Shown: piece after piece, positions 27,600 to 46,760 of the stretch
Layout of the letters: every line of letters starts with the position of its first letter
How positions within the stretch are numbered: the first letter of the stretch is position 1
From: Desulfurococcales archaeon
Lineage (GTDB): Archaea > Thermoproteota > Thermoprotei_A > Sulfolobales > Desulfurococcaceae
DNA: 64,000 bases
Assembly: GCA_027022365.1 (NCBI GenBank)
Contig: JALVYU010000031.1
Span: forward strand, 352,001-416,000
Direction: 5' to 3'
Position numbers and translations under genes: made by a program
The notes under the pieces: model-generated
Told to the model about the DNA's origin: nothing
The model's database searches: none
The model's input: only the letters and a program-made list of their open reading frames with translations

Positions 27600-30017
27600 T
27601 TACAGGCTACTCGACAGTTCCTTAATGATTTTCTCGGCCTGCTCCACTAACTGCTTGGCCTGCCCAACCATCTGCTGAGCAGCCGTTACATCGTCCTGCT
27701 TCAGCTTCTCCTCGGCCTTGTTCAGAAGCTGTGTCGCGTTGCCGAGTAGCTTGTATGCTTCTTCTATCATCTTCAGCGCTGTCTCGTTCTTCTCACGCTC
27801 GGCTTTTATCTTGAGCAGTGATAGTGTCTTGTTATCCTGGTAAATCTTGGCCTTCAGGGCCTTTATCTCGATCTCGAGCTGTACCTTAGCCTTTTCCTCG
27901 GCCGCCTTTATAAGTTTCTCCGCTTCGTCGACAAGCATCTTGGCCTCTATGATCTTGAGCTTTGCCTCGCCTACACATATTATAGCGTCAGCGGTCTTGT
28001 TCTCCCTGAGCATCTTCTCCGCATCGTCGAGCAGCTTCGATGCATTTACTAGTAGTTCTCTGGACTTGTTCAGTAGTTTCATCGCGTCCGTCACGTTGAG
28101 CTTCTCCGCTTCACTGTAAAGCTTGTCTATCCGTGTCATTGTCTTGTTGATGTCCTCCTTCATACTCTTGATAATCTTTTCCAGCTCCTGCTTAACTTTC
28201 TCCTCAACGTCCCTGATCATCTTCTTTACTTCCTCCATCTTCTTCTCAATCTTCTTGATCAGGTCCTTGACCATGTTGAGTATCTTGGCTGCATCGGTCA
28301 CGTTGCCTTGCTGGAGCGTCTTATTGGCTTCTTCAACCATTTTCAGTGCTTGCTGTAGAGTCTCGTTGAGCTCCGCGATCACCTTTTCTGCCTGGGTGGC
28401 ATTGATCTTCTCCGCCACCTGCATGAGCTTTGCTAGGGTCTTATTGTATTCTCTTAGTATTGTTATGGTCTTATTGATCTGGTTCTCGATGTCTATCTTG
28501 ACCTTCTTTACAGTCTCAATTACTCCTTCAGCAGTACTCATCGTAATGTTTACCTGTACGATGATCGAGTCTATCTTGTTGATTAATTGTAGCGCAACGG
28601 TCTCATTCACTTCTCCGTTCTTAACCATCTTCTCCAGCTCGGCATAGAGCTTCTTGGCCTCTTCCAGCATTTTCATTGCCTGCTTGATCATGTTTAATGC
28701 ATCGCTGCAGCCGCACTTCTCAGCTTCTTCAGCTATCTTCTTTAGATGTTTTTCGGCTTCCTCGATCCTAGTCTTTAGCTCCTTCAGCTTCTCAGCTACG
28801 TCCTTTACAATGTATTTAGCCGCGTTCTTCTCTATCATGCCCCATGCTTCGTGTAGCATTGTCTTTATCTCAGCCATTATTTTCAGTGCACCGGTGAGGT
28901 TGCCGTTCTCGATCATCTCCTCCGCTCTCATGGCTAGTCTGACCATTATCTTGTATTGCTCAATGGTCTTGTTTACCAGCTCATATAACCTCGTGTTATT
29001 AGTCTTGATCGCTTCTTCGCGTAGTCTCGCCAGGGCCTGGTTGAGGCTCCTGAGCCTATCCATTATCTCTTGTAGCGTCATGTTAGCTGTTTTCTTCACG
29101 GCTTCCTTCACGGCAGTTGCGTTGGCCGTCATATTTGTCTCTACATATACTTTAATTATCGGTATTGCCTGTTCGATGAGCTTCAGTGCTTGGCTCACAT
29201 GGGTTAGCGCCAGGTCTATTGATACGCTTATCTCCTTAGTCATATTGCTGATGGGGAGGCTCTTCTTGATTATTCTCAGTATGTCTACCGTCTTGTTTAG
29301 CTCGTGCATGGCCTTTATCATGAGCTTATAGGCTTCCTCTAGACTCTTGGTCTTCATCGTCGTGTTCACTGCTTGCAGCGACATAACCTCCACGGTGTCA
29401 GCGAATTCCCGGACATGCATGATCTTCGCTATATTGTCTACTTCTTTCACGACACTTATGATCTTCGCTGTGTTCCCGGTCTCTATTACCTTAGTTATAT
29501 TAACATATAGCTCGTGTAAGAGCTCCTTGTACTGCGTTGAAAGAGTCTTGTTGAGGCTCGCGATCACCTGGTCGACGATGGTCTTGATCACAGTCATGGT
29601 GACGTTTGATGGAGTGGTCTTTTCCAGGATGATAGCTAGTTCATGGTATACGGTGTTCTCCTCCGAAACCAGTTTCTCGAGCTGATCTACTGTCATGCTG
29701 TTTATCTTCATTGTAGAGATGCTGATCAGCTCCTTAACCTTACTCCTGAGGTCTTCTGGAATACTTGAAGCGTTGAGCGACCTATACGCCTTCTCGATCA
29801 TTATCTTCAGGAGTATTGCTTGGCTCCTCAGCACAGTCGCGTTTACGAGTGGACCGGGCTGTGTCTGCCCGTATGCCTGGATCCCGGCCGCCCACGTCAG
29901 AGTGGTTGCCGGGAGCAGAGATAACATTATTAGTGTTAGGACCATAATTGATCCTAGTAGCTTATACACGGCCTTCACGCCTCTCACCTCACCCCCTTTC
30001 TCTCTGTTCAAAACCAT
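27600..30017 (-). CDS. Large secreted alpha-helical repeat protein
   Basis: 805 aa with signal peptide (LTWAA), K/E-rich helices, five ~100-aa C-terminal repeats and many NxT sequons; no C-terminal TM helix. Confidence 0.8.
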   Translation of the reverse strand: MVLNREKGGEVRGVKAVYKLLGSIMVLTLIMLSLLPATTLTWAAGIQAYGQTQPGPLVNATVLRSQAILLKIMIEKAYRSLNASSIPEDLRSKVKELISISTMKINSMTVDQLEKLVSEENTVYHELAIILEKTTPSNVTMTVIKTIVDQVIASLNKTLSTQYKELLHELYVNITKVIETGNTAKIISVVKEVDNIAKIMHVREFADTVEVMSLQAVNTTMKTKSLEEAYKLMIKAMHELNKTVDILRIIKKSLPISNMTKEISVSIDLALTHVSQALKLIEQAIPIIKVYVETNMTANATAVKEAVKKTANMTLQEIMDRLRSLNQALARLREEAIKTNNTRLYELVNKTIEQYKIMVRLAMRAEEMIENGNLTGALKIMAEIKTMLHEAWGMIEKNAAKYIVKDVAEKLKELKTRIEEAEKHLKKIAEEAEKCGCSDALNMIKQAMKMLEEAKKLYAELEKMVKNGEVNETVALQLINKIDSIIVQVNITMSTAEGVIETVKKVKIDIENQINKTITILREYNKTLAKLMQVAEKINATQAEKVIAELNETLQQALKMVEEANKTLQQGNVTDAAKILNMVKDLIKKIEKKMEEVKKMIRDVEEKVKQELEKIIKSMKEDINKTMTRIDKLYSEAEKLNVTDAMKLLNKSRELLVNASKLLDDAEKMLRENKTADAIICVGEAKLKIIEAKMLVDEAEKLIKAAEEKAKVQLEIEIKALKAKIYQDNKTLSLLKIKAEREKNETALKMIEEAYKLLGNATQLLNKAEEKLKQDDVTAAQQMVGQAKQLVEQAEKIIKELSSSL

Positions 30018-30028
30018 ATAAGAATCCC

Positions 30029-32685: not shown

Positions 32686-33273
32686 ATGTGCTCACTTCCC
32701 CCAAGACTCGAAAAAGCACTGAGAATACTCTCTGAGATTCTCTCCGGAATTGGTGCTAGGTGGGTATTAGTCGGGAGCACGGCGAGCTGTTTAAATGGTG
32801 TCGAGGTCCAGCCCGAGGACATAGACGTTATCGTTGAGTCTGGCAAGGCCTACGAGGTCGACAGCGTTTTTGCCTCTCGCTTCCGGGTCTTAAGGAGGAT
32901 GAAGTATAGCTCTAGCGAGGTATACTCGAGCCACTACGGGGTCTTCGAGATCCAAGGCGTCAAGGTGGAGGTTATGGCAAGCCTCAAAATATGTGGAGAA
33001 CCCGGCTGCCTAGAGGTAGAGTTCGATGAGCTTTACCGCTACTCTAAGAGCCTCAGGATAGAGGATACAGGTCTTAGGGTAGCGCCTTTAGAGTGGCAAT
33101 TAGTAGCTAATACCCTGATCCCGGGGAAGGAGAAACGCGTAGCCAAGATCCTCGAAGCCCTCAATACCAAAGGCGTGAATGTCGAGATCCTAGATAATGT
33201 GCTGGGCAAGGCCCCGCAAAAGACCAGAAAACACGTCATAGAACTCCTAAGAAACACCCACAAGATATACTAG
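32686..33273 (+). CDS. Nucleotidyltransferase-superfamily protein
   Basis: VLVGSTA...PEDIDVIV pol-beta-type GS-x10-DxD motif and KVEVM. Confidence 0.75.
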   Translation: MCSLPPRLEKALRILSEILSGIGARWVLVGSTASCLNGVEVQPEDIDVIVESGKAYEVDSVFASRFRVLRRMKYSSSEVYSSHYGVFEIQGVKVEVMASLKICGEPGCLEVEFDELYRYSKSLRIEDTGLRVAPLEWQLVANTLIPGKEKRVAKILEALNTKGVNVEILDNVLGKAPQKTRKHVIELLRNTHKIY

Positions 33274-33319
33274 TAAGAATACTTTCCCGCCTGGATAAGC
33301 AGGGCCAAGTTATTGACAT

Positions 33320-33790
33320 TTTATTATTGCTCTACGTATATGGCTATGAGCTACTTAAGCATATCTGCATTGATCTTTTGGAAAACGTTATTGGTATATA
33401 TATCTTCCACCGAAACAGGGTCGCAATCGTATACAGCTATGTATCTACTATATAGTGGCGATAAGTATCCGAAAGGTCTTACAAGGTATTTTACGAGTCC
33501 TCTGGTTAAGTTGTCATTTTATATTAGTTTTGCCGCCCAATAAACACTATGCTCCAAAACATGCTTGCTAATCCATCTGTTGGTTTTGGAATGCTTACCT
33601 AGAATAATGGCTAGTCTTGAAACCGAGTATACTGAATACGGTTCTAGCCCTTCTTCATATATGATTCTCGGAATATCTGCTGAACCAAATGATATGAGAG
33701 CACCCATTGCGAAGGCAAGCTCGGCAAAACCATTGAGTACCGGTGTATAGCCAGTACCCCATTCTAAATGTACTCTTATTATTCATTTTG
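33320..33790 (-). pseudogene. Degenerate ORF of unknown family at the left edge of the defence island
   Basis: One frame reads IIRVHLEWGTGYTPVL...WAAKLI*NDNLTRG...ADMLK*LIAI, with two in-frame stops. Confidence 0.4.
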
Positions 33791-33862: not shown

Positions 33863-36805
33863 GTGGATTATCACATGGTTTTGGGTAGGGTTTTTAAAGA
33901 TATTTTGGCTGAGGAGTGTAGGAAGATTGGTAATAATTGCAGTATTGGCAGCAGTGTTTGCGAGATTTCTCATCCCGATTACTGTATTTCGTGGAATGAG
34001 CTGTTAGGTATTATCAAAAAGCATACTAGTGAAGACCCCTCTATTATTGCTCGAAAGCTTATTGGTGACGGACTAATTATTAGAATTAGCGACGATTGCT
34101 TTCGTTCTATATTTTTTGATTTACTTCTCAGGGCTAGTGATCTTAGGGTTAGACCTAATGATAGAAAGATGGTATTGTCTTCGTCATACAGTGTTCAGAG
34201 CCGTGAGGCACCCTCATATAGTGACCGTGTTATACTTCCCCGCAAAGAGATACGTGACGGTGAAAAATATCACGTGATTTCCAGGAAACTTTATGATACC
34301 ATAGCTAAACTATTACCTAATGACATAGTTGACGTGTTTATTGAGACAATCAGTAAATATTTTTGTAATAGAGGTTCAAGGGGATTTGATGCTTATCAAG
34401 CATACTCTATTTATGAGGCGTTGAATAAGCTTGATACATCGAGGGGTATTCTAATTGTTGCACCGACGGGTTATGGTAAAACCGAGATATTTACGGTAAT
34501 TGTATTAATTGATCTACTAAGAAACTTTAGTTCTGGGTGGAAATACATATTTGTGTATCCGAGGAAAATGCTTGAAATAGACCAGATGAGCAGGCTTGTA
34601 GAGCTTATAAGAATACTTAACCAGAGACTTTCTGGTAGAAAAATAAGGATCTATATCAGAGACGGCGATACAAACGACCTGAAGGACAAATACAATGATG
34701 CAAGACTGGGAGACCATATAAGGTTTCGAGGTATAAAATGCAGCGATAACGGAGAATTATTTATTGTGAAAACATCTACTGGACCGAGAGTTGTCTGTAA
34801 ATCGGGAGATAGAGAGGAAGAATATGATTTCATAATACCCTTCTCTGATCCTAGTACGATGACTAAGAACGCTGATATAATTGTCACTAATCTCGATACA
34901 CTATTCTTCGCGAGCTTCACCAAGCGGGGACACGACATTGATGTAAACGACATAATTAAGACAAGGCTCATAGTATTTGATGAAATACATGAATACGACT
35001 CTGTCAGGCTTGCACAGATTCATTATTGGCTGAAAATATTCTCTGCTCTCCAAGAAAAACTATTCGGTGAAAAAATCGTTGTTCCTATTCTATCCTCAGC
35101 AACAATACCTAATCCTATAAAATTTGCTTCAACACTGATAGGTGTAGATGAAAAAGAAATAATAGATCTTAGATACGATTTTATGCGCAGAAAATACAAA
35201 GACATTAAATTCAGTGGACACAGAGTAAAGATATACCTATTCATACAGACAATGCCATGGGTAAGCTGGGAAACTTACTTATCAGAGCTTTCAGCACTCA
35301 TACTTTACCTCCACAAAATCTACAGTGTAGCTAATCGACCCTATGTCCCCCAATCAATTTTCTTCGTGAACAACATTAGAGAAATAAATAGGCTCAAAAC
35401 AATAACCAGGCAAGCACTATCCCTTGGTTCACCCCTCGATATTCTATGTGTCAGGAAAGTAGAGTGCTCTGTAGAAGATTCACGTATGAAAAGAGATCAT
35501 TGTAGACACTACTACGAATACCTGACGCCTGACAATATCAAGAAGGAAATCAATGAGAGGATACAAGAAGATAGAAAGAGAGCAAACATCCTAGATCTTC
35601 TTATTGAGGGCTTGGATGTAGTATTCAGTAAAATACCTTTGAGTGAACGAGAAGAAATCTACAACAAGCTTAGGAGCAGAGAACTAGGAGTCGTATATGC
35701 AACTACTTCGCTTGAACTTGGAGTAGATTATCCCTACGTATCAATAATAGTGAATGCTGGGTTCGATAAGATAGAAAGCATGATACAGAGAATAGGGCGC
35801 GGAGGCAGAAGTTCTGAAAGTCTATGGACGATGCTCACCATAATACTTGCCAGGAATAATCCCCTAGACTACAGGTTGTTCTCCGACACAATAACCCGTG
35901 AAAAAATAATAAGAGAAGATGTAAGTAGTGAAAGAAAAATCTATATATCAAAGGATCTCTTCCCAGTTAAGACAAACATGTTACTGAAAAGCATTCTAGC
36001 CTATAGTATTATACATAGGAAATCACCCATACTCTACGGTGGAAGAACACTCAATAAACATGAGGTCTTAAAACAGACAATAAATGAAATGATCAATATA
36101 CTTAAAGACACAGGATTCAGGGAATTCGCAATAAGGGAAGCAAGAATAGTTGATGAAAATGAATACGAAGAAGTCAAGAATGGACTAATAAAATTATTAG
36201 AGATAGTAGAGCAACCAAACATTGCCAGACTCATGGAAGAGCTAAGCGTAGAATACGTATCAATAGAAAACATGATCCAGAACCTCTACGGGCTACATAG
36301 TATCCTCAGCGAGCTCAAAAACAATATCGAGGAAAAAATACAGAAGCACATGCGCGTAGAAGATCCTGGCCTCCGGAAAATAAGTAGAGTTGCTGAGTCA
36401 ACCATTAATACTGTGAAAGATTACTTGAATATATTACTGGAATATATTAATGTATTAGAGAAAATTGTCCCCGCGCAAGCCGATGATATAATCTATTATA
36501 GCCGGTTCATAGAGCTATCTGAGATATACGAGTTCGTAAATAATGCTATCAGAAGAGTAGATGAAATAATCAATCTGGACGAGAGAAACCACGTAGAAAG
36601 GGAAACAGTAGTAGCTAAGTTGAGGACTCTATTAAACACTATTATGATGTATGATTCTCAGAAATTATGGAACGACACGAGAATACTCATAGAGAAAATC
36701 CTCAGCGATATAACGAGACCCAAATACCATGTATCATTCATGCCTATTTTGAAAAAACTCGTAGAGCTAAAGAAAGATATCGAGAAAACACTTGGTAGGG
36801 TGTAG
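33863..36805 (+). CDS. SF2 DEAH-box helicase (DrmA/DpdJ/DruE-like)
   Basis: Q-motif AYQ, APTGYGKTE, YPRKML..DQ, DEIH, SAT, ATTSLELGVD and QRIGRGGR; long helical C-terminus. Confidence 0.9.
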   Translation: MDYHMVLGRVFKDILAEECRKIGNNCSIGSSVCEISHPDYCISWNELLGIIKKHTSEDPSIIARKLIGDGLIIRISDDCFRSIFFDLLLRASDLRVRPNDRKMVLSSSYSVQSREAPSYSDRVILPRKEIRDGEKYHVISRKLYDTIAKLLPNDIVDVFIETISKYFCNRGSRGFDAYQAYSIYEALNKLDTSRGILIVAPTGYGKTEIFTVIVLIDLLRNFSSGWKYIFVYPRKMLEIDQMSRLVELIRILNQRLSGRKIRIYIRDGDTNDLKDKYNDARLGDHIRFRGIKCSDNGELFIVKTSTGPRVVCKSGDREEEYDFIIPFSDPSTMTKNADIIVTNLDTLFFASFTKRGHDIDVNDIIKTRLIVFDEIHEYDSVRLAQIHYWLKIFSALQEKLFGEKIVVPILSSATIPNPIKFASTLIGVDEKEIIDLRYDFMRRKYKDIKFSGHRVKIYLFIQTMPWVSWETYLSELSALILYLHKIYSVANRPYVPQSIFFVNNIREINRLKTITRQALSLGSPLDILCVRKVECSVEDSRMKRDHCRHYYEYLTPDNIKKEINERIQEDRKRANILDLLIEGLDVVFSKIPLSEREEIYNKLRSRELGVVYATTSLELGVDYPYVSIIVNAGFDKIESMIQRIGRGGRSSESLWTMLTIILARNNPLDYRLFSDTITREKIIREDVSSERKIYISKDLFPVKTNMLLKSILAYSIIHRKSPILYGGRTLNKHEVLKQTINEMINILKDTGFREFAIREARIVDENEYEEVKNGLIKLLEIVEQPNIARLMEELSVEYVSIENMIQNLYGLHSILSELKNNIEEKIQKHMRVEDPGLRKISRVAESTINTVKDYLNILLEYINVLEKIVPAQADDIIYYSRFIELSEIYEFVNNAIRRVDEIINLDERNHVERETVVAKLRTLLNTIMMYDSQKLWNDTRILIEKILSDITRPKYHVSFMPILKKLVELKKDIEKTLGRV

Positions 36806-36809
36806 TATT

Positions 36810-39215
36810 ATGGTTTTTCCTATAAATCCGCATGATGCCGTCAGAGAGGGAATAAAACTATTAAATTTCATAAATAAGGCTACTGGCTGGGACAAGTTTG
36901 GATCAGAACCGTACATTGATACGATCAAATTACTCTATACTGATAGCAGGGAGGAAGATGAGATCACCTTCTACGATCTCTTCTATAGGCTTCCACCCTT
37001 TGAGCCCATAGCTTATCCGGATACCAGTTATGGTAATGCAAAGTTTACAGGCGATAGACTATGGGTTCTCGATGTAGTAGAGATGATTAATCATGGTAGA
37101 CTAAAAAAGATATGTAGAAGTCTTAAGAGGAGTATGTGTATTCCGTCTAGATGTGATTACAGTATTGAGGGAATTGTACGTGGAGACCGAGTGAAATTAA
37201 CCCATATCATTGTCTTCAGGATAATTGGTGATCTTGATGGAACACTTACCCTCAGATTCATCAAAGATAACAAATACTACATTATACAGTACGGGTTCTC
37301 ACCTGAAACGATCAATGTAATTAAGAGAGATATTTGTAAAGAAATAGGATGCGTTGATGAGAGATTTGTAGACATAATATCTAAGAAATGGAAAGACATT
37401 GAAAAAGCTATAATGCAAAGATATACGCCCAGATACGATATTAACATACTGAACTATATAACCTATTGTTATAATGGAAGATACATAACAACAGACCCTA
37501 TTATACAATATATGGGCGGAAAACACATTAGGTGTCCGCCTTGTCGGAATCAGAGATTTTCGAGGCTTTTCATATGTAAAGATTTTCCTGGTCTAGGCAG
37601 GTTTCACTACAGCCGCAAAATATTCCCTAAAGTATACGTAAACATAGAGCCGGAGATAATATACTCTTTTAACCAGAGAAAATCCCCGCTCACAATAGAT
37701 ATTGCCGACAAAATAAGGATTATTTCACAGGTATCCAGGTTAACCCTATATCTTCCAGGAAACAATATTCTCGAACTAGAGCCTGGTATTAAACCCTACA
37801 CAGACCTTGTCAGAACAAGAGGCCTCATAGTCTACATCGGAAAAGACTTCGTGAAAGCAATTATATCTTACTTACTGGATGTGGACAAGGAATTATTAAG
37901 GATTCTTGCAACCAAGTACATTGTACTTAAAACCAGTATGTTCAGGCTCGGCTCATCGAAATCTGATACGGGAAGAGGAATCCTCGATCACGATCAAAAA
38001 CGCATTGAATTTTATGCCGGTGAAGAACCCATCATAGACCTTGTAAACGATATATTGAAGACGCAAAATATCTTCTCAGAGAGCTTCGTAGACTATGTGG
38101 GATCTGTTTTAATGCATACTATATCACATTTATTATTAATGGAGCTCAGCAGAAGACTCGGAATAGATCCGAATAAGATCTCATACGTCTATGGTGCACA
38201 TATTCTTGGAAATGGAGACAAAGTATACTTTGCAGCCATTGTTGAGAAAGACAAGTATGGAACAATAATGTTCAATAGAGCGATTAGAGAGCTCCTCCAA
38301 GAGCTTGGGGAAGGCGATTATGAGAGAGGCTTTTACAGATTACTGAAAGATATAAATAACTATGTCGCTTCTATTGTGAAGAAATATGAACGCGAATACA
38401 GAGCCTATATAAAGGAAAACGAATGTTCTTTATTATCAAGCGATCTAAACGATCTTGAGAAAAAAGTGCTCGAATTCATTATAGACATTATAGTGGCTAC
38501 GAGGAGATATCTAGAATCTAATAACGTCTATCCTGATTTTTCCATATTTAAACATATCATAGTGTCTTTGCTAAATACTCATAACACAGAGGTATACGGC
38601 CACATCATCAACTGGATCATGTATAAGTTAAAAGGAGAGATAAAGGACAAATATGAGCTACAAGGAATAGTCGAAGACATTATTGAGAGAAAACTCGAAT
38701 CACTGCTACTATGCTACGGTCCCGATTACTGTCTCGATGGTTGTAGCCTAGACATACATTTAGAGAAGGATTGTACAAAAGCTATGACGGAGAATCTTGA
38801 AACAAGTAGGAGGCTATTTGAAGCATTCGCTCGCTTAATAGGAATAAGCGAAGATGTCATTAATTCTCCTGTGAAAGGAATAACTATCTACAGACTCATT
38901 ACGACAGCCAGGAAAAGCTTGTCCATAGAGACTTCGCATACAAATGACCAGGCAATTGACGCCCTAACTAATCTCCTCGAAAAAGGAGTGAGAGTACATA
39001 TCACGATCGATAAGAGAATTATCAAGGAGGTAGAGGATAGACTTAGAAAACTCAAAAACATGTATGGTGATAGATTCACGTACAAAGAGTCGGAAAGGCT
39101 TATGCATTATAAGACATATGTTGTAGATGACACCCTAAGAATAGAGACATCATGGAATTACTCCACTGCATCAAATATTGAGCAGGGAATGATCATTAAA
39201 AATCTCTTGGTTTAG
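36810..39215 (+). CDS. DUF1998 (DrmB/MrfA-C)-like protein fused to a C-terminal PLD-family nuclease domain
   Basis: MHTISHLLLMELSRRLGI...ISY, IVEKD..G and CLDGC...C; C-terminal HYKTYVVDD...TSWNYS (HxKxxxxD). ATG lies 4 nt after the helicase stop (track start 36792). Confidence 0.75.
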   Translation: MVFPINPHDAVREGIKLLNFINKATGWDKFGSEPYIDTIKLLYTDSREEDEITFYDLFYRLPPFEPIAYPDTSYGNAKFTGDRLWVLDVVEMINHGRLKKICRSLKRSMCIPSRCDYSIEGIVRGDRVKLTHIIVFRIIGDLDGTLTLRFIKDNKYYIIQYGFSPETINVIKRDICKEIGCVDERFVDIISKKWKDIEKAIMQRYTPRYDINILNYITYCYNGRYITTDPIIQYMGGKHIRCPPCRNQRFSRLFICKDFPGLGRFHYSRKIFPKVYVNIEPEIIYSFNQRKSPLTIDIADKIRIISQVSRLTLYLPGNNILELEPGIKPYTDLVRTRGLIVYIGKDFVKAIISYLLDVDKELLRILATKYIVLKTSMFRLGSSKSDTGRGILDHDQKRIEFYAGEEPIIDLVNDILKTQNIFSESFVDYVGSVLMHTISHLLLMELSRRLGIDPNKISYVYGAHILGNGDKVYFAAIVEKDKYGTIMFNRAIRELLQELGEGDYERGFYRLLKDINNYVASIVKKYEREYRAYIKENECSLLSSDLNDLEKKVLEFIIDIIVATRRYLESNNVYPDFSIFKHIIVSLLNTHNTEVYGHIINWIMYKLKGEIKDKYELQGIVEDIIERKLESLLLCYGPDYCLDGCSLDIHLEKDCTKAMTENLETSRRLFEAFARLIGISEDVINSPVKGITIYRLITTARKSLSIETSHTNDQAIDALTNLLEKGVRVHITIDKRIIKEVEDRLRKLKNMYGDRFTYKESERLMHYKTYVVDDTLRIETSWNYSTASNIEQGMIIKNLLV

Positions 39216-39237
39216 ATTTTATAGCGCCCAATGCTTT

Positions 39238-40479
39238 CTAAACAACAATACTACAGCCCTTACGTAAAAGGTCGATGAAATAATATTCTCCCCAGCCAAT
39301 TATTCCGGTTGATAACTTGTTTAAATTTTTCATTTTAACTCCTTGTAAAGGGCTCCATTTTCCCCTGGAGGGCCATATATGTGATTTACCATATTTTAGA
39401 AGCGGCTTTGGAGGAACAAGTCCTATTTTAATAGTATTACCTCTTCTATGTTCCATGAAAATACTTCCCATTAATCTATTAATTGTCTCCAATACTATAT
39501 CTCGTGCATCCTTTTCTTCGATTAATTCTTTCAGGCTAAAACTATTAAAGACTTTCATAAAAATGATACTACACATGCTGACTAAATCGTTTAAATTAAC
39601 AAAGATACCTCCACAAGTTTTCTTATTTATATATAATATGTAATATGATAGTAGCAAGAGGTTTCCAGCAAGAAATAATTTAAACGTGTCATCAGAGAGG
39701 TTAAGTCTATCAATTATAACATTTCTTGTCTTCACTCCATCATAGACGTTTGCAAGTAGATAGACACCATTGTCTACAAGATCATCCGTTAGACAATTTA
39801 TCTCTATACTACCTCTGCGAATATCGATTAATCGAGTTAAGCTGTCGCCTCTTCTTTTAACATAGTAGACTTCGAGGACCCCACTACAAGCGGGGTAAAG
39901 ACCCATAAAGTGTGTTTCTTTTACATTTCCGAAACATTTGTGTATAGTGATTCTCCCTGTTACAAGCCCCAATGATATATCAAGTTCTGGATTCTCGGGA
40001 TCCTTTATGAATGATAATATTCTATTTGATAGAATTAGGTTATTACTATATTCTTTGTAGATTGGAAATCTATGGAGTATTGTTTTCGAGTAAAAATAAT
40101 TCTCGATATATTTTCTCTGCATACTTGTTAATTTTCCTGTATTAAAAGGTTTGAGGGAACCATACGTTAGAAGCCATTTCCTTCTCACGAGTCTCGGAAG
40201 ATCTTTAGGGTATTTTGTCCTATAGTAGGAATGCTTTCTAAGATCTATTCTGCCGGTATAAGATATGCCGATAGTTACATTGTTGATAATATCCTCTAAT
40301 AATATAAGATTATACTTTAGTCGAGTGAATGATGGGTGCTCTGGGTATCGTTGATATAGATTTTTAATAATGGTTTTTCTTCCCAGTATCTCTGATAGTT
40401 TACAGAGTGTTGTCTCTGTATCCTTCAGACGTTCTGCTAGTTTGAACCAGTCTATATAGCACTTATTACTGGAAGACAT
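39238..40479 (-). CDS. Hypothetical basic protein co-transcribed with the methyltransferase
   Basis: Intact ORF of about 413 aa (track 424 aa from 40512) directly downstream of the MTase; no recognisable motif. Confidence 0.7.
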   Translation of the reverse strand: MSSSNKCYIDWFKLAERLKDTETTLCKLSEILGRKTIIKNLYQRYPEHPSFTRLKYNLILLEDIINNVTIGISYTGRIDLRKHSYYRTKYPKDLPRLVRRKWLLTYGSLKPFNTGKLTSMQRKYIENYFYSKTILHRFPIYKEYSNNLILSNRILSFIKDPENPELDISLGLVTGRITIHKCFGNVKETHFMGLYPACSGVLEVYYVKRRGDSLTRLIDIRRGSIEINCLTDDLVDNGVYLLANVYDGVKTRNVIIDRLNLSDDTFKLFLAGNLLLLSYYILYINKKTCGGIFVNLNDLVSMCSIIFMKVFNSFSLKELIEEKDARDIVLETINRLMGSIFMEHRRGNTIKIGLVPPKPLLKYGKSHIWPSRGKWSPLQGVKMKNLNKLSTGIIGWGEYYFIDLLRKGCSIVV

Positions 40480-40493
40480 CACTATACAGCCAC

Positions 40494-42347
40494 TTATAGA
40501 TCGAGTATGCATTGTTTCCTTAACAAATGTACTATTCTTTCTACTTGTTTTTCTTCTCTATCCCAGTCTATTCCTTTGTCCACATGTTTTTTCTTTGTAA
40601 TTAAATACTTAGTCTCTCTGAAGTCTTTGATAATATTATCTATTATTTGATCTATTGTGGTTGGCTCATACTTAGCCCTATTGAAGACCATAGCGTATAC
40701 TCCCCTGGTCCTAGATCTTCCAAGTTTTCCGGGGGCTTCTCCTATGAACCAATAAATGTTTACTGGTTTGAGCTTCGTGTATATTATTGTCGCGTTTATG
40801 ATTCGTGGTAATATCTTGGCGTATTTTGTGCTGGAAATACTTATGAGCAATACATAGTAGCTGGGTGTATGTTTCCACCTTGAAAGTACTTTAACGAATT
40901 GCTCATAGAACTCAATATATGCCTCTGGATCAGATAGGTTGTAGGTTTCTTGGCTCCTTGTATCTCCTGACGGCTCATCAACTAGATCTAAGAAGTAATT
41001 GTATAGGAGGGACATATCAATGTATGACTGATACCCTGGATAAGGGGGATCAGTTACTATCGCGTATACTTCTCCGTCATAAATGTATTTCGTGCTGTCT
41101 TGCCTTAGAACCATGTAGTCACCGCTAAAATCTATTTCCTTACCAAAGCATATTTTCTGGATAATTGCGAGTTTCGATGCCAGTGTTCCCCTTCCTATAC
41201 TGTATATTTTTCCATTCCTTAATCTATGTGCAAAGGGGTTCAGCTCTACGGGGTTTTCGGGTAACCAGTAGCTCTTTATTATTAGTCCTGGATTAACCTT
41301 TGCGTATGGTTGGTAATATATCGCTAAAAGAGAACATGTTCTAGCAGTATCTCCCACTATTAAACCAGCTATATCCCTACAGTTTGGTGGTGTTTTCTCT
41401 ATGAATTTTATTAAGGAGATATATTGTCTCCAAGTGAATAGTTTTGAGTACTCATATATGCCTTTATTAATTAATCTCTTTGTCTCCTTCAGCAGAGGTA
41501 TTTTCTGATCATACTTTGAAGCTAGTTCAACATATTTATTCTTAATGCTTTCTTCTTGCATAGCAAGATGCCTTCTAATAATCTCCGATGTCTTGTCACT
41601 ATCGTCTAGTAGGCTATAGAATTTTCTCTCACCACTAGTTGTTAGTATTTCAACAGCATATGCTCTATAGTTATCATGTACTTTGGGGAGTTTATCTGCT
41701 GGTAGATTTATCTTTGGCTCTCTCGGTTTTATTTCACCGTATTTCTTGATCTCTTCTTTATCGATCCATTCAAGCCTACCATTTTCCCTCAGTACAAGAT
41801 ATTTATCTATCCCGTTATTTCTCCTCTTAGATGAGACCCATAATGGTGCGCGGCAAGGTGGACAACGAGAAAGGAATACATGTATTATCTCTCCAATCCC
41901 TGGTATTCTCCAAAGATACCTCGTCTCTCTATATGCCTCCACATATCCTTTTAGGAGACAGGAGTATATGTCGAGGCAACTCGTCTTCCTAGCTAATTTT
42001 AGGGTTGACTTAACTATTAGTTCCGCTGCTCGGTCGATGTCTATGCCTACTATGTTATAGCCTAGTCTTAGTGCTTCGAATACTATTGTCCCTCCACCCA
42101 TGAAGGGGTCCAGGATCCTCTTGCCCCTCGTTGAACCCCAGCATCGATAGGGGTCCTTGAGACATGCCATCATCTCGGAAACTCTTCTCGTCGATAACGA
42201 CGCCAGTAATGCTCTGCTGAGAAGAAAGAATCTTCTACCCCACCACTTAAACACATTGTATGGATTACTACGTCTACCTTTCTCTGCTAGGATAGACCTA
42301 TATGATATTTCGGCAACTATGCTTGGAGGAAGATTCTCTATCAGCAT
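40494..42347 (-). CDS. DUF1156-like amino (m6A/m4C) DNA methyltransferase
   Basis: N-terminal KWWGRR, motif I ILDPFMGGG...EALRLG...GIDID, CPPC, ELNP and motif IV VTDPPY. Confidence 0.88.
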   Translation of the reverse strand: MLIENLPPSIVAEISYRSILAEKGRRSNPYNVFKWWGRRFFLLSRALLASLSTRRVSEMMACLKDPYRCWGSTRGKRILDPFMGGGTIVFEALRLGYNIVGIDIDRAAELIVKSTLKLARKTSCLDIYSCLLKGYVEAYRETRYLWRIPGIGEIIHVFLSRCPPCRAPLWVSSKRRNNGIDKYLVLRENGRLEWIDKEEIKKYGEIKPREPKINLPADKLPKVHDNYRAYAVEILTTSGERKFYSLLDDSDKTSEIIRRHLAMQEESIKNKYVELASKYDQKIPLLKETKRLINKGIYEYSKLFTWRQYISLIKFIEKTPPNCRDIAGLIVGDTARTCSLLAIYYQPYAKVNPGLIIKSYWLPENPVELNPFAHRLRNGKIYSIGRGTLASKLAIIQKICFGKEIDFSGDYMVLRQDSTKYIYDGEVYAIVTDPPYPGYQSYIDMSLLYNYFLDLVDEPSGDTRSQETYNLSDPEAYIEFYEQFVKVLSRWKHTPSYYVLLISISSTKYAKILPRIINATIIYTKLKPVNIYWFIGEAPGKLGRSRTRGVYAMVFNRAKYEPTTIDQIIDNIIKDFRETKYLITKKKHVDKGIDWDREEKQVERIVHLLRKQCILDL

Positions 42348-42474
42348 TAATTATCCCTTTTCCAATCATAAGCCCCGGCTCAAAACCTAATATATGGTAG
42401 TATATTATGTAAGATAATATAAGATAATAATTGTCAACAACTAGTCATGAAAAATACTAAGTCGGTGCATTATT

Positions 42475-43902
42475 ATGCCGCATTTCGTGTTAAAACTGAA
42501 AAACTATGGTCCTTTCTCAAGCCTCGATCTCGTTGTAAAGCCTTTGACAATAATAATTGGAAGAAATAGCCTTGGAAAATCTATGTTATTATATCTTCTA
42601 TGAGGTCTTGGAAACATCTATCACGGAGAAATCGATCTAAGGAAAATATACGGGGAGGAGGCTTACATAGAGAAAATCAATAGGATCAGCAGGTATATTA
42701 TTGATGGGGGCCTTAGCGAGAAAGGCGTCCAGGATCTATTAATGGAGTTCATGTTTGAAGCTGTTAAGTCTTTCGATAGACTTGTTACAATGAATTTTGG
42801 CGAGGTTCTCGCTAAAACCTATTGTGTTAATTCGCTTGACGATCTCGTGAAGAGGGGATAGAGGGAGGCGACAATAAGTCTTAGAGGTCCTTATGGCGAG
42901 TTAGAAATCACTATTAGGAACGGGAAGGCTGAAGCATCATGGATAGATGTTGCCATTGAAGAAGCATTGGCGGATATCGCGGATAACATGGTTGAATATG
43001 ATAAAGACAAGAAGACCCTAAAGATAAACATTGGAGATAATAAGCCGTTAGCCATGAGTATGCAGAACTATGAAGATGTTAGATTATTCGTGGCTGAAAA
43101 AGTGGTTCCAGCAGTGATTGAGCATATAATAGGCTTCTCTCATTTCCACGAGGATAAAGTTATACTCGTAGATGGTAGAGCAGGTATTATGAGGGCTCTG
43201 AACAGGCTTTACAGCATCCTTACAGAGCAGCAGCTTGCCTTTCTCAGCATGGTAGATAGAGAGTTTTTGAGGAAAACTAGAAGCTTGTTCGAAGACTATT
43301 TCGTCGGAGAATACGATGTAGAGACGGACCTGCTTAAAGACATTTACAGGGAATTTGGTATATTAGACATTGTTCCTAGATACGAGGCAGGTATTAGAAA
43401 AATCTACGTGAAGCTATGGACAGGCATCTATCAGTCTCTCGAAGAATCCCCAGCAGGAATTAGAGAAATACTGCCTCTGGTCATTAGTTTAATCAGCACT
43501 AGGCTGAAAAACATCTATGTCGAAGAGCCTGAGGCCCATCTTCATCCAGGAGCGATATGGGCTTTATCCAAGATCATAGGATACGCTGTCTCTCAGAGGA
43601 AGACAAACATATATATGACAACGCATAGTGACTACCTCGTCTACTGTATAAACATACTTATACAAGTACACCGAGTAATTGGGAGGAAACATCTTCAAGA
43701 AGAACTGAGCAAGATAAACATAGATCCGAGAGTAGGCATAGACCCCGACACTGTTTCAGCATATCTTCTGCGCCGTGAAAACGATAATGTTGTCGCCGAT
43801 AACCTTGTAATAGGCGAGGAAGGTATTGATGAAAAACACTTCTCAGACATCATAACAGAGCTTGCAGTGAGGAGAGAATACATTGACACGATTGCAAGGT
43901 AG
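42475..43902 (+). pseudogene. AAA/ABC-type ATPase (AAA_15/AAA_21-like) pseudogene
   Basis: ATG 42475 gives LKNYGPF...IIGRNSLGKS (Walker A). In-frame stops TGA 42601 and TAG 42859; the same frame continues to SPAG, VEEPEAHLHP and MTTHSDY. Confidence 0.85.
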
Positions 43903-44320
43903 GAAGACCAAGTCATCAAAGCCGATAATAATAGACCTAGACAAAGTAATTGACAAGAAAAAACTCGGTGAAAACAAAAAGTATGCCGATAAAATATTCG
44001 TCTACAATGAACAGATCTTTGTCATAGAGGAAGCGAAGAAACCCAAACTAAAAGACGTAGACCAAGTAATCGAGACAATCAAATCCCTCAAATCTAGGCA
44101 CCCCGCCTACGAGCAGGTGATCAATATCATAGAGAAACACTGCAGTCATATAGAAGATCATATACACGGAATAGTTCACGGACTCAAAAGCGTCGACTCT
44201 ATGGTAGCGAAATATGCCTCGGAGAATAAGGAGACGATAGTCCCAGTAAACTGCAATGAAAAACTATGGTGCACAATCAACCAACTCACAAAGAACAAGA
44301 ATTATCAAAACAGTCCTTAA
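43883..44320 (+). CDS. Putative PD-(D/E)xK nuclease-like partner of the AAA ATPase
   Basis: ADKIFVYNEQIFVIEEAK...DQVIETI pattern; overlaps the ATPase stop. Confidence 0.5.
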   Translation: MTRLQGRKTKSSKPIIIDLDKVIDKKKLGENKKYADKIFVYNEQIFVIEEAKKPKLKDVDQVIETIKSLKSRHPAYEQVINIIEKHCSHIEDHIHGIVHGLKSVDSMVAKYASENKETIVPVNCNEKLWCTINQLTKNKNYQNSP

Positions 44321-44528
44321 CTCTATTTTGTTATTACAGTAATTATGAGAAACGCCGTTCTATGGTCTAGAGCCCATATCCAACACCTACTACGATACAC
44401 CATCACTCTACATCGGGTTATTTGTATTATTTCAAGTACATAGTCTATGCTGAAGGCATTATAAGATCCTATGGGTGGAAAGATTAATTGTTCTTAAATG
44501 ATTCATAGATATTTAAATGGTGATGAAA

Positions 44529-44752
44529 TTGTCTAGAGTCATAAGGGTAAGATATGAAGGGGGGTCCTTAAGCCTCTTAAGCCTTTAGGATTAATGGAGG
44601 GGGAGGAACTTATCGTAGAGGTAAAAGAGATGCTTGGTAAAAAGAGAGGGGTAAGGAGGTTCTTTGGAATAATAAAGACCAAGGACTCTAAACCGGGAAG
44701 AGAGGAAGACTATTATGGACATCTCTCGGAAAGATGTCATATTTCTAGATAG
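44529..44752 (+). pseudogene. vapB: AF2212/DUF104-type antitoxin pseudogene
   Basis: MSRVIRVRYEGG, then a frameshift in a G6 tract (44559-44564), continuing VLKPLKPLGLMEGEELIV. Confidence 0.75.
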
Positions 44753-45177
44753 TATTTTCGTTATTCTTGGAGGTTCTATCGCTAGGGACATTATAGAGGG
44801 TTCTTCGAGGTTTGCAATTAATTCGGTAGTCTTTAGTAAGATATCGTTTAATCTCTTGAAACTACTATATGAAGAAAAATTCGGAGAATACCGCTTCTAT
44901 AATATGAAATCAAGCCTATTGGCGCGAGATTACGATGTTTTTAAAAGGTTATGAAATAGCTTGGTCTTTCCTGGATGAACTATATAGTAAGGACAGATTG
45001 GTGTTTATCTCCATAACCATGCAAGTAGTAAGCGACGCTGCTGAAATAGCTACAAAATATAGACTACTGCCCAATAACGCACTAATAGCAGCAACATGTA
45101 GGCACTACGATATAAACAGCATAGTAACTTTCGACGAAGACTTCAAAAAAGTACCATGGCTCAAAGTGATTCCCTAG
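44715..45177 (+). pseudogene. vapC: PIN-domain (VapC) toxin pseudogene
   Basis: IFLDS N-half and LLPNNALIAATC...TFDEDF C-half lie in different frames (shift near 44940). Confidence 0.8.
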
Positions 45178-45304
45178 TTCCATGAGAATATTATCGATCA
45201 GGATTATCAACGGTGAAGTAAAAGGACTATAATTCCCTACTCAGATTCAAAAACTATGACTCCCCTATAGAATAAACAAGACCAATGCAGGGAATTTATG
45301 AATA

Positions 45305-45354
45305 GCGAGCCTACAGGGATTTGAAACCAGATCCACTATTTCCAGAGGCTGATG
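45305..45354 (-). other. Degenerate tRNA 3'-half relic (tRNA-Arg-like), possible integration scar
   Basis: GCGAGCCTACAGGGATTTGAAACCAGATCCACTATTTCCAGAGGCTG resembles the reverse complement of an archaeal tRNA acceptor stem, T-arm and anticodon arm, with broken pairing. Confidence 0.45.
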
Positions 45355-45500
45355 GATAAATACTTAGTTTTATTGCATAGAGTAAAGCGGGATCTGCAAC
45401 AATGCCAGGAAAATGATTTAGTAAATTTGTGGCTGCAAACTTATTCCATCACAACATGCTTTAATCCTTCGCAACTATAAATATAGTCGGGTGTAACTGC

Positions 45501-45698
45501 GTGTCTAAAGTTATTAGGGTTAAGTACGAGAATGGTATATTGAAGCCTTTAGAGCCAGTAGATCTAGAGGAAGGAGAAGTAGTCTTGGTTACCATTAAGC
45601 GTGATATAAGGAGAGTGCTCAAGAAATATCGAGGGATTCTAGGAAGAACATCAATTAGAGAACTCCTAGAAATCGAGGAAGAGGCTCATATTCAATGA
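45501..45698 (+). CDS. vapB: AF2212/DUF104-type antitoxin
   Basis: MSKVIRVKYENGILKPLEPVDLEEGEVV; intact and overlapping the toxin start. Confidence 0.88.
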   Translation: MSKVIRVKYENGILKPLEPVDLEEGEVVLVTIKRDIRRVLKKYRGILGRTSIRELLEIEEEAHIQ

Positions 45699-46157
45699 GG
45701 CTAGCTTACATTGATACTAGCTTCATACTTAGCATCCTCCTGGAAACCGAGAAGAGCGGTCTGGCCGAGCAAATCTTAGAAGCACACAGCGACCTACAAT
45801 TCATGATTTCAGGAATTGCAGTTAATGAAACCCTCTATGTCGCAACTTATGAGTACTACAAGCAGAAAGGAATGATTAGGGGGAGATACGGTTTAAGAAA
45901 GTTAATTGCGAAGCAAGGGTATCCTAAATAAGGTAATAGATACAGTAGTCTCCTTCCTAAAAGATCTAAACGTCGAAATGGTAAGTGACTATTTCGACTA
46001 TAACGAATATTTCCAAATAATACAAGATTTTAAACTCCTTCCTAATGATGCCTAGATAGCATTAACTTGTCGGCACTATGGCATCAACATCATCTTAACT
46101 TTCGATGAGGACTTCAAGAGGGTTTCATGACTTAAGATTATCCCACAGAGGGGATAG
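45695..46157 (+). pseudogene. vapC: PIN-domain (VapC) toxin pseudogene
   Basis: AYIDTSFI...NE, frameshift near 45930, then LLPNDA*IALTCRHYG...TFDEDFKRVS*LK with stops at 46053 and 46128. Confidence 0.85.
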
Positions 46158-46760
46158 ACTAAATCAATATTATCACAAACATATAGAGAGTCCATGGTGT
46201 TTTACAATTTTAATTCTTGTTTATAATTACAAACTGAATACCTCATCCTAGAATGACGGGTTTTCATTATCAATTAGCCTGGTATTTTTTAGCTTCCGAT
46301 TTCCCTACATTCTTAATAGCATGCCCTAATAACTTTATAATACCCGCTCCTCGGCATCCAGTCCCTATTTTATAAATATCATTGCAAACAAGCCGTGGCA
46401 TGTATAGTCTCCATGTGGAATCTACGCCGAGAAAATAACGGTAATAAATGGCGGGCAGGCTGGAAAACTCGGTGATCTATGATTAGAAGGTGTTAATGGT
46501 ATAGTTGCTTTTGAAGAGAGGTGGGGAGAATACTTAAGTAGCGGGCCTACTGGGGGTTACGGCTCAAGGATCATTTGCCGATGGCGGGAAAACAAAAGCC
46601 ATGAGTATCTTGTCAATAAAGCCTTGGAGTTTGGAGTTGTTCTAGGAGTGGCTTATAGTTGATGGGGCGGGACATGGGTATTGTCCTGAGAGCTGTAAAG
46701 TCCTTGTGGCTGTAGGTTTGGGTTATGGATATGGGTTGTCTTCCGGTCCTGGATCGAGGA

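Follow-up and report, generated by a model that had tools for sequence, protein, structure and literature searches.

We identified a four-gene cassette at positions 33863-42347 of a 64,000-nucleotide stretch of DNA from a Desulfurococcales archaeon (GenBank assembly GCA_027022365.1, contig JALVYU010000031.1, positions 352,001 to 416,000 of the forward strand; this whole stretch is hereafter called the window). Judged from its sequence, the cassette is probably a restriction-modification (RM)-like defence system, a relative of DISARM and Dpd of the YprA-helicase kind that carries a methylase of the BREX-related (BR/Hma) type. It comprises a helicase (Hel), a protein in which a putative canopy module is fused with a PLD nuclease (Fus), an orphan protein (Orp) and a DNA methylase (MT). 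The cassette is unnamed, recurrent and archaeal; its make-up is that of a hybrid and its general logic familiar. No PADLOC, NCBIfam or Pfam model names this gene combination, and scans of the four proteins with these models revealed no system that corresponds gene for gene, as the first-pass annotation of this DNA had supposed.

Hel (33863-36805, plus strand, 980 amino acids) and Fus (36792-39215, plus strand, 807 amino acids) run towards Orp (39238-40512, minus strand, 424 amino acids) and MT (40494-42347, minus strand, 617 amino acids). None of the four open reading frames (ORFs) contains an internal stop, and they form two convergent pairs in which a 22-bp spacer (39216-39237) separates the stop codons of Fus (39215) and Orp (39238); the ORFs were re-read and the coordinates agreed with the first-pass annotation. 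The probable starts of Fus and Orp are the ATG codons at 36810, as in the Fus homologue P0001, and at 40479, as in the Orp orthologue of locus L002, and with these starts the overlaps with the upstream genes vanish. The GC content is 0.373 in the cassette, 0.38 in the low-GC stretch 33863-46700 and 0.474 in the rest of the window. Together with an adjacent ATPase gene that has two in-frame stops (see below), this bears out the earlier description of an AT-rich island with decayed neighbours.

The four genes are found elsewhere as a conserved unit. They are syntenic, in the same order and convergent layout, in a Desulfurococcales metagenome-assembled genome (MAG; L002), in a Thermoproteota MAG (L003) and in a third locus (L085), where MT is followed by Orp, convergent to Fus. 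Identities to the window proteins in L002 and L003, respectively, were 61 and 47% for Hel, 63 and 46% for Fus, 50 and 38% for Orp, and 58 and 51% for MT. We further scanned metagenomes with the MT family alone as the query and searched the 53 loci returned with hidden Markov models built for this analysis. Hel or the non-PLD part of Fus was present beside MT in 44 of these loci, including all 37 that were at least 5 kb long, and the nine loci in which neither was found were contigs shorter than 5 kb. At 95% identity the MTs of these loci formed 41 clusters, 35 with Hel or Fus and 26 with both. In a sample of 401 genomes from the phylum, full-length MT (E<=1e-116) was detected in six (G000, which is the genome of the window, G142, G080, G083, G313 and G268), and Fus was adjacent to it in all of these except G142. 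Besides G000, Fus-like multidomain proteins occurred in G083, G188, G268, G313, G080 and G206, and no Fus was found in the 16 same-family genomes searched. Joint inheritance of MT, Hel and Fus extends to relatives with just 22-35% identity. The earlier proposal that the genes belong to one system was therefore upheld when their co-occurrence was tested, by the three syntenic loci and by the 37 longer MT loci.

The cassette occurs in several layouts. In layout A, MT, Hel and Fus follow one another and meet a convergent fourth gene of ~390-436 codons (family F4A, 13 clusters), and in layout B the same three genes are followed by a fourth gene of ~475-494 codons on the same strand (F4B, 3 clusters as well as G083 and G268). 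In layout C, a fused Hel-Fus protein of ~1600 amino acids is followed by MT and then by a fourth gene of ~450-468 codons (F4C, 12 clusters and G080). Layout D, Hel and Fus convergent with Orp and MT, is that of the window, L002, L003 and L085. Single Hel-Fus chains of ~1600-1740 amino acids were present in G080, G313, Thermococcus barossii (P0048, 1682 amino acids) and others; in the fused relatives the order helicase, Fus-like part, PLD is kept. The existence of such fusions in some lineages is strong evidence that Hel and Fus act as one machine. In one pair of metagenome loci with MTs at least 95% identical, the effector was encoded in two frames (794 and 852 amino acids, L126) or in one fused frame (1645 amino acids, L127); the difference is due either to a gene that was recently split or fused or to a faulty assembly.

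Hel is a superfamily 2 (SF2) DExH helicase of the YprA/DrmA/DpdJ kind, in which motifs I, II, III and VI are all intact: Walker A, APTGYGKT (residues 200-207, 34460-34483), DEIH (residues 373-376, 34979-34990), SAT (35093-35104) and motif VI, QRIGRGGR (35786-35809). Its Pfam matches were DEAD (2.5e-13), Helicase_C (5.9e-10) and ResIII (4.7e-9). Among PADLOC models DpdJ was best (7.6e-20), followed by DrmA (7.8e-15, 51.7 bits); both matches were partial and covered the conserved helicase core. The best stretch for DrmA was only residues 605-668, and the DpdJ, Cas3 and DruE models scored alike. The curated NCBIfam DpdJ model gave 53.1 bits against a cut-off of 800, and the closest NCBIfam helicase models, TIGR03817 and a ligase-associated DEXH helicase, were both far under their cut-offs. 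The top PDB sequence match, YprA/MrfA (6znp, 4.8e-10), confirmed an SF2 DExH core nearest to YprA, and no DrmA structure appeared among the PDB sequence matches at E<=1e-3. Neither the Cys-rich N-terminal ~170 residues nor the helical C-terminal ~290 residues matched any family. A separate canonical YprA-like gene is present elsewhere in the same genome (G000:C31:87556-87777, locus L058, MZB/DUF1998 58.2 bits, 767-amino-acid open frame) and is probably a housekeeping repair helicase; such genes were present in 24 of 61 genomes sampled from the phylum.

The C-terminus of Fus is a predicted intact single-HKD PLD nuclease of the Nuc/BfiI/Zucchini type, a type marked by one HxK(x)4D(x)6GSxN motif in a domain of ~130 residues. 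The HxK(x)4D motif is HYKTYVVDD (residues 772-780, 39105-39131) and is followed by SWN (39150-39158), and Pfam PLDc_2 matched residues 700-802 with 33.3 bits (cut-off 27). The PADLOC DrmC model also matched Fus (7.8e-9), whereas the curated NCBIfam model (NF038319, DrmC_I) gave 16.5 bits against a cut-off of 133. With the DpdJ and DrmA matches of Hel, this agrees with the earlier view that the helicase-PLD half of the cassette is DISARM/Dpd-like. Foldseek matches of Fus were Zucchini (1.2e-4), Nuc (1byr, 2.3e-3), NucT (6ehi, 2.9e-3), BfiI (2c1l, 5.7e-3) and MrfA (6znp, 6.9e-3), and Nuc 1byr was matched at 1.3e-9 by the Fus family profile A4.

Outside the PLD domain, Fus matched no family model. 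Its N-terminal part contains a conserved CPPC...C cluster (37533-37544). Further downstream are a DUF1998-like HTxxH signature (38115-38129) and a cluster of Cys residues, C641/C647/C651/C661 (38712-38774), with ~130 residues of helical insert between the two. Eight residues are invariant across 50 Fus relatives, i.e. H442, H446, E485, C661, H772, K774, D779 and N789; the H442-x3-H446...E485...G490 motif is invariant as a whole, and C647, C651 and C661 of the Cys cluster are nearly so. When the 50-sequence Fus family was compared by hhalign with 26 YprA-like C-termini from the phylum, both DUF1998-type motifs aligned co-linearly (E 0.055 and 0.0032), and the latter value was better than those of the reversed alignment (0.083) and of every one of 20 block shuffles (0.011 at best). 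With the MrfA match in Foldseek and the one relative above the Pfam MZB threshold (see below), it is likely that Fus residues ~340-690 are a DUF1998-type module. An exhaustive protein search returned 268 Fus relatives, 41 of them at E<=1e-30; a word-indexed search, which gave five, understated the family.

MT is predicted to be a true DUF1156-superfamily methylase, as a compact full-length relative that would modify DNA at N6-adenine or N4-cytosine. It contains FKWWGRR (residues 33-39, 42231-42251), motif I, DPFMGGGT (42087-42110), and motif IV, TDPPY (residues 432-436, 41040-41054), with an insert of ~340 residues between motifs I and IV. All the motifs named in the first-pass annotation (APTGYGKT, DEIH, HxK(x)4D, FKWWGRR and TDPPY) were thus located. 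The N6_N4_Mtase model matched MT with 37.1 bits (cut-off 26.7), and comparison of the MT family alignment (A3) with 24 DUF1156 methylases (A5) by hhalign gave a probability of 100% and E 1.2e-61 over 521 columns, in line with the KWWxRR/DUF1156 type assigned earlier. Because Pfam DUF1156 itself reached only E 0.19 (12.3 bits, cut-off 24) and NCBIfam NF042963 only 21.9 bits (cut-off 1000), MT appears to be a divergent compact branch. It lacks the C-terminal ~300-400 residues and the zinc-ribbon inserts of the long (~1000-amino-acid) DUF1156 methylases. The MT family forms 37 clusters of ~500-640 amino acids that do not carry PF06634, a domain present in nearly all of the next-nearest relatives. 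Among the 25 PADLOC matches listed of 28 for MT there was no Drm model; those seen were MTase_II, mad2 and HmaB models.

Orp, the subtype-specific fourth component, had no match in Pfam, PADLOC or NCBIfam, and its only homologues were those of L002 (50% identity), L003 (38%) and L085. An AlphaFold2 model of mean confidence (pLDDT) 62 showed a beta-rich core at ~164-270 followed by helices. Foldseek against PDB gave nothing below 1e-3 and faint OB-fold-like matches near 1e-2 (ribosomal uS17 and mitochondrial SSB). In the ESM Atlas the best score was 0.88 with 154 shared features, in clusters of which 11-17% of the members carried LAGLIDADG_3; this falls below the bar of the tool and serves as a lead only. 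A prediction of the complex of MT (residues 1-575) with Orp (residues 12-424) scored 0.00 in both runs, which is uninformative either way.

A fourth gene of ~390-470 codons is nearly always present in the relatives, and these genes belong to at least four families with almost no mutual likeness. BLAST revealed none between families. By hhalign, F4A and Orp were related with a probability of 43% (E 2.4e-4, 273 columns), and all other pairs of fourth-gene families were at or below 4%. Nothing exceeded the threshold when ten fourth-gene representatives were searched against Pfam, and the 470-amino-acid protein of L020 had no usable ESM Atlas match. The idea that the fourth gene supplies the missing C-terminal part of the long DUF1156 enzymes was rejected at the sequence level (hhalign probability no more than 0.8% for the four families, whether compared with that region or with the full-length proteins). 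In the first-pass annotation the orphan was thought to mark self DNA together with the methylase. This was not supported: in relatives the fourth gene usually adjoins Fus, in convergent or downstream position, and not MT, and one locus, L004, has a fourth gene with no methylase nearby. Gene position and L004 suggest instead that the fourth gene belongs with the effector half, Hel-Fus.

The cassette was also present in other sequence data. Eight DNA sequencing runs contained at least 79% of its sampled words, i.e. a possible source run and seven from three studies, one of these studies being that of the source; the records name a hydrothermal vent metagenome or are blank. In four runs other than the source, no indel occurred within 33863-42347, and indels were seen only outside genes, at 33257-33397, 42359 and 42410. 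Of the 164 differences in the compared stretch, 40 were listed and 31 of these lay in genes, with 21 synonymous and 10 non-synonymous substitutions and no stops (for Orp, 4 synonymous and 1 non-synonymous). In this sample, the pattern indicates that each of the four genes is under purifying selection.

The following mechanism can be envisaged. Like DrmA and DrmB, Hel and Fus would combine into a single machine, in which an OB-CON-DUF1998 canopy contributed by the middle of Fus would cover the RecA domains of Hel. This assembly may load onto incoming DNA and translocate with ATP. Single-HKD PLD nucleases act as dimers, and the active site would be built from two Fus PLD domains, as it is in Nuc and BfiI, to cleave DNA not carrying the modification of the host. 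That modification would be placed on the host genome, and so protect it, by MT, a putative methylase of N6-adenine (or, less likely, N4-cytosine) with a recognition insert of its own. Orp, like its unrelated-looking counterparts in the other subtypes, may be a fast-replaced accessory, either a sensor or specificity factor or a regulator of the effector, which by gene position would work with Hel-Fus rather than with MT. We also propose, more tentatively and with slightly less than even confidence, that MT, Hel and Fus with a swappable fourth protein represent a distinct unnamed class of archaeal antiviral systems. Such a class would be a third DISARM-type build, with a YprA-type helicase/canopy-PLD effector and a BREX-related (DUF1156) methylase; its fourth protein, for which families that look unrelated would have been substituted at least four times, might be the module for virus sensing or target choice.

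Several results weigh against the RM-like reading or parts of it. Pfam MZB/DUF1998 (PF09369) did not match Fus even at E<=10, its threshold was passed by only one of 50 Fus relatives (L024, 784 amino acids, 27.4 bits against 24.2) and by none of six fused Hel-Fus relatives, and the hhalign probability of the match between Fus and YprA C-termini was 10%. PDB sequence searches with the Fus profiles A1 and A4 returned PLD enzymes only, with no DrmB or MrfA (A4, E<=10). The DUF1998 label given earlier to Fus is therefore weaker than stated there, drawing on the two signature motifs, the weak hhalign alignment and the one relative above the Pfam threshold. Residues 1-340 of Fus were poorly modelled (pLDDT <50), which leaves the OB-CON part of the proposed canopy putative. 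MT is not always accompanied by the effector. In L088 and L128 it is flanked by other ORFs and is probably truly solitary, and the full-length MT of G142 (L055, G142:C1:50416-52158) lacks both Hel and Fus in the 10 kb to its left and right. The latter, and an N-terminal MT remnant with an in-frame TGA in another genome (L056, G325:C1:387082-387618), look like stages of system loss. Finally, no RNA run was listed as containing the cassette.

The locus that lacks a methylase bears on an alternative, in which the cassette is a defence system and not a classical RM system: Hel-Fus-Orp would itself sense a cue of infection, which might be DNA ends, replication forks or, through the variable fourth protein, a component of the virus, and MT would be an add-on or regulator. 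In L004, an Acidilobaceae MAG, Hel and Fus are followed by an unrelated 405-amino-acid gene and then by transport and metabolic genes, so the nuclease half need not depend on MT; however, only 16.9 kb of this contig were seen and a methylase could be elsewhere. In DISARM and BREX, self is recognised only in part through methylation. The fourth genes belong to dissimilar families while the other three genes stay recognisable, which suits virus-facing parts. A precedent for activation by DNA structure is also available, in that the DrmA-DrmB helicase/DUF1998 complex is auto-inhibited and activated by 5' overhang DNA (PMC9142583). Tight linkage of MT, in every metagenome locus of at least 5 kb and in five of six genomes, is nevertheless what is expected of an obligatory self-marking partner, and we regard the sensor-driven alternative as unlikely.

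YprA/MrfA, the closest solved relative of Hel, is itself a repair helicase, and kinship alone does not make the cassette a defence system. It might thus be a housekeeping or mobile-element module for DNA repair or processing, similar to MrfAB (YprA helicase and nuclease), a reading to which the nearest NCBIfam helicase models also lean, far under their cut-offs as they are. We consider this highly improbable, since a canonical YprA-like gene lies elsewhere in the same genome, the cassette is sporadic (Fus in none of 16 same-family genomes, full-length MT in 6 of 401), it lies in a low-GC island alongside other defence genes, and the pairing of a methylase with a nuclease follows the logic of RM and not that of repair. 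The weak matches to the DpdJ, DrmA and DrmC models might alternatively mean that the cassette is a divergent member of a system that already has a name, i.e. DISARM, Dpd or a candidate in a supplement or newer database. The full-text literature searched contained no description of the gene combination; the supplementary tables of Bell et al. 2025, which may list the clade, lay outside that search. Against membership in a named system are the scores for DpdJ and DrmC_I, far under the curated cut-offs, the lack of a DpdK or DrmB match for Fus and of any match for Orp, and the lack of the defining DISARM and Dpd partners among the ORFs scanned at 27.6-53 kb. This explanation also appears quite improbable, and an RM-like defence system is the reading that we retain.

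Other genes of the island were also analyzed. Next to MT is a broken ABC-type ATPase gene (42451-43902, plus strand) with an in-frame TGA at 42601-42603 and an in-frame TAG at 42859-42861. It matched Pfam AAA_15/AAA_21 and the PADLOC models PD-T4-4_A, NsnB and AriA and was GajA-like. Position 42603 is G in four other runs (TGG, Trp), so the TGA break is specific to this assembly or population. The ATPase gene is followed by an ORF of 145-149 amino acids (43883-44320; stop to stop, 43871-44320) with a weak HSDR_N_2 match. Further downstream (44558-46055, plus strand) are two small gene pairs that, by frame reading alone, each consist of a DUF104/VapB-type antitoxin and, behind it, a PIN (VapC) toxin, which in the second pair is seemingly split across the frames 45659-45931 and 45906-46055; read in this way and without a family search, these frames suggest broken PIN-type toxin-antitoxin pairs. 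On the other side of the cassette, an 805-amino-acid ORF (27600-30017, minus strand) had only sub-threshold Pfam matches (UCH, 20 bits, and DUF7217), and the opposite strand carries five ORFs of 90-225 amino acids (27847-30021). The strong AT skew (-0.355) and the GC skew (-0.133) of the 28-30 kb region favour the long minus-strand frame as the true gene. A check for island borders revealed no tRNA and no Rfam family in the window, and the only repeat found was a 19-nt direct repeat with two copies, at 40299 and 42414, which is probably due to chance.

Defence genes also lie beside the cassette in relatives, among them the two distant ones L020 and L021. L020 (1481-7730) has, next to Hel-Fus, a long DUF1156 methylase (HmaB) and a DUF499 ATPase (HmaC, 1.9e-57), i.e. 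a full Hma/BREX-related Type-1 set, and L021 (148-8823) has a long DUF1156 methylase (HmaB-like) and an SNF2 helicase (HmaA-like, 4e-43). These two loci therefore contain two different DUF1156-type methylases in one island. Long DUF1156 methylase genes were also found near the cassette in L091, L102 and L105, and PDC-S68 was beside it in L023.

To our knowledge, tests of antiviral systems in hyperthermophilic archaea are very few, and bacteria are where most of the named systems were defined. The gene signature of the cassette is clear and repeatable: the metagenome scan yielded 41 distinct methylase lineages, there are three operon layouts, and the effector comes in a fused and a split form. 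The cassette joins two families that are usually kept apart, YprA/DISARM effectors and BREX-related DUF1156 methylases. The exchange of the fourth component while the other three are kept amounts to a natural experiment. With four genes in 8.5 kb, the cassette is compact and lends itself to expression in Sulfolobales hosts. An active cassette would provide a helicase-nuclease that withstands heat, as well as a methylase that recognises a new motif.

Compared with known systems, the cassette resembles DISARM in that a YprA-type helicase is split from a canopy module, which in the cassette is putative (DUF1998-like) and lies in the next gene. In DISARM the canopy module is a separate gene, after which comes a PLD gene (bioRxiv 10.1101/2025.09.15.676423). 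A PLD nuclease and a DNA methylase occur in one locus in both cases, in a defence-island setting, and methylated self DNA is presumably spared. In contrast to DISARM, the putative canopy module and the intact PLD domain of the cassette are one protein; the methylase is a compact DUF1156-superfamily enzyme; the Drm model scores are partial or sub-threshold; and the hosts are thermophilic archaea. The cassette has neither SNF2 DrmD nor DrmE and has a fourth gene of no known family. Neither DrmD with DrmMI nor DrmE with DrmMII, nor any SNF2 helicase, C5 methylase or deazaguanine gene, was found among the ORFs scanned at 27.6-53 kb, in agreement with the first-pass annotation, in which the usual DISARM and Dpd partners were not seen.

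With Dpd, the cassette shares DpdJ as the top PADLOC match of Hel and a PLD nuclease that follows the helicase/canopy unit. The fused relatives (~1600-1740 amino acids) are DpdJ-like in length and layout, and some of them weakly match DpdK. Unlike Dpd, which is recognised by DpdJ and DpdK equivalogs with deazaguanine genes, the cassette has a methylase and no nearby deazaguanine genes; Hel scored far below the curated DpdJ cut-off, and Fus matched neither the NCBIfam DpdK model (E<=0.01) nor a DrmB model. In addition, the Cys cluster is kept in the cassette, whereas it is lost in canonical Dpd according to Bell et al. 2025.

The BREX-related Type-1/Hma systems have a methylase of the same superfamily, alike along the whole core, and a comparable RM-like logic with a helicase-nuclease effector. 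Their effector consists of SNF2 and a PD-(D/E)xK nuclease, whereas that of the cassette is of the YprA type with PLD; the cassette also has no DUF499 ATPase or SNF2 helicase, and its MT lacks the C-terminal ~300-400 residues. The DUF1156 methylases of BREX-related systems are described as having their recognition insert behind core strand 2, and a role in marking self DNA is proposed for them (PMC12839542). ARMADA, BRIGADE and TALON are likewise YprA-family defence systems, with the helicase paired with a methylase in ARMADA and with a PLD nuclease in BRIGADE. As described by Bell et al. 2025, ARMADA differs by its PglX-like methylase, BrxHII helicase and fused Vsr nuclease, BRIGADE by its deazaguanine genes and its reported occurrence in haloarchaea only, and TALON by its RNase H-like domain and TPR-CSD proteins, none of these components being present in the cassette. 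The DISARM-like clade of YprA helicases is described by Bell et al. 2025 as containing many uncharacterized classes.

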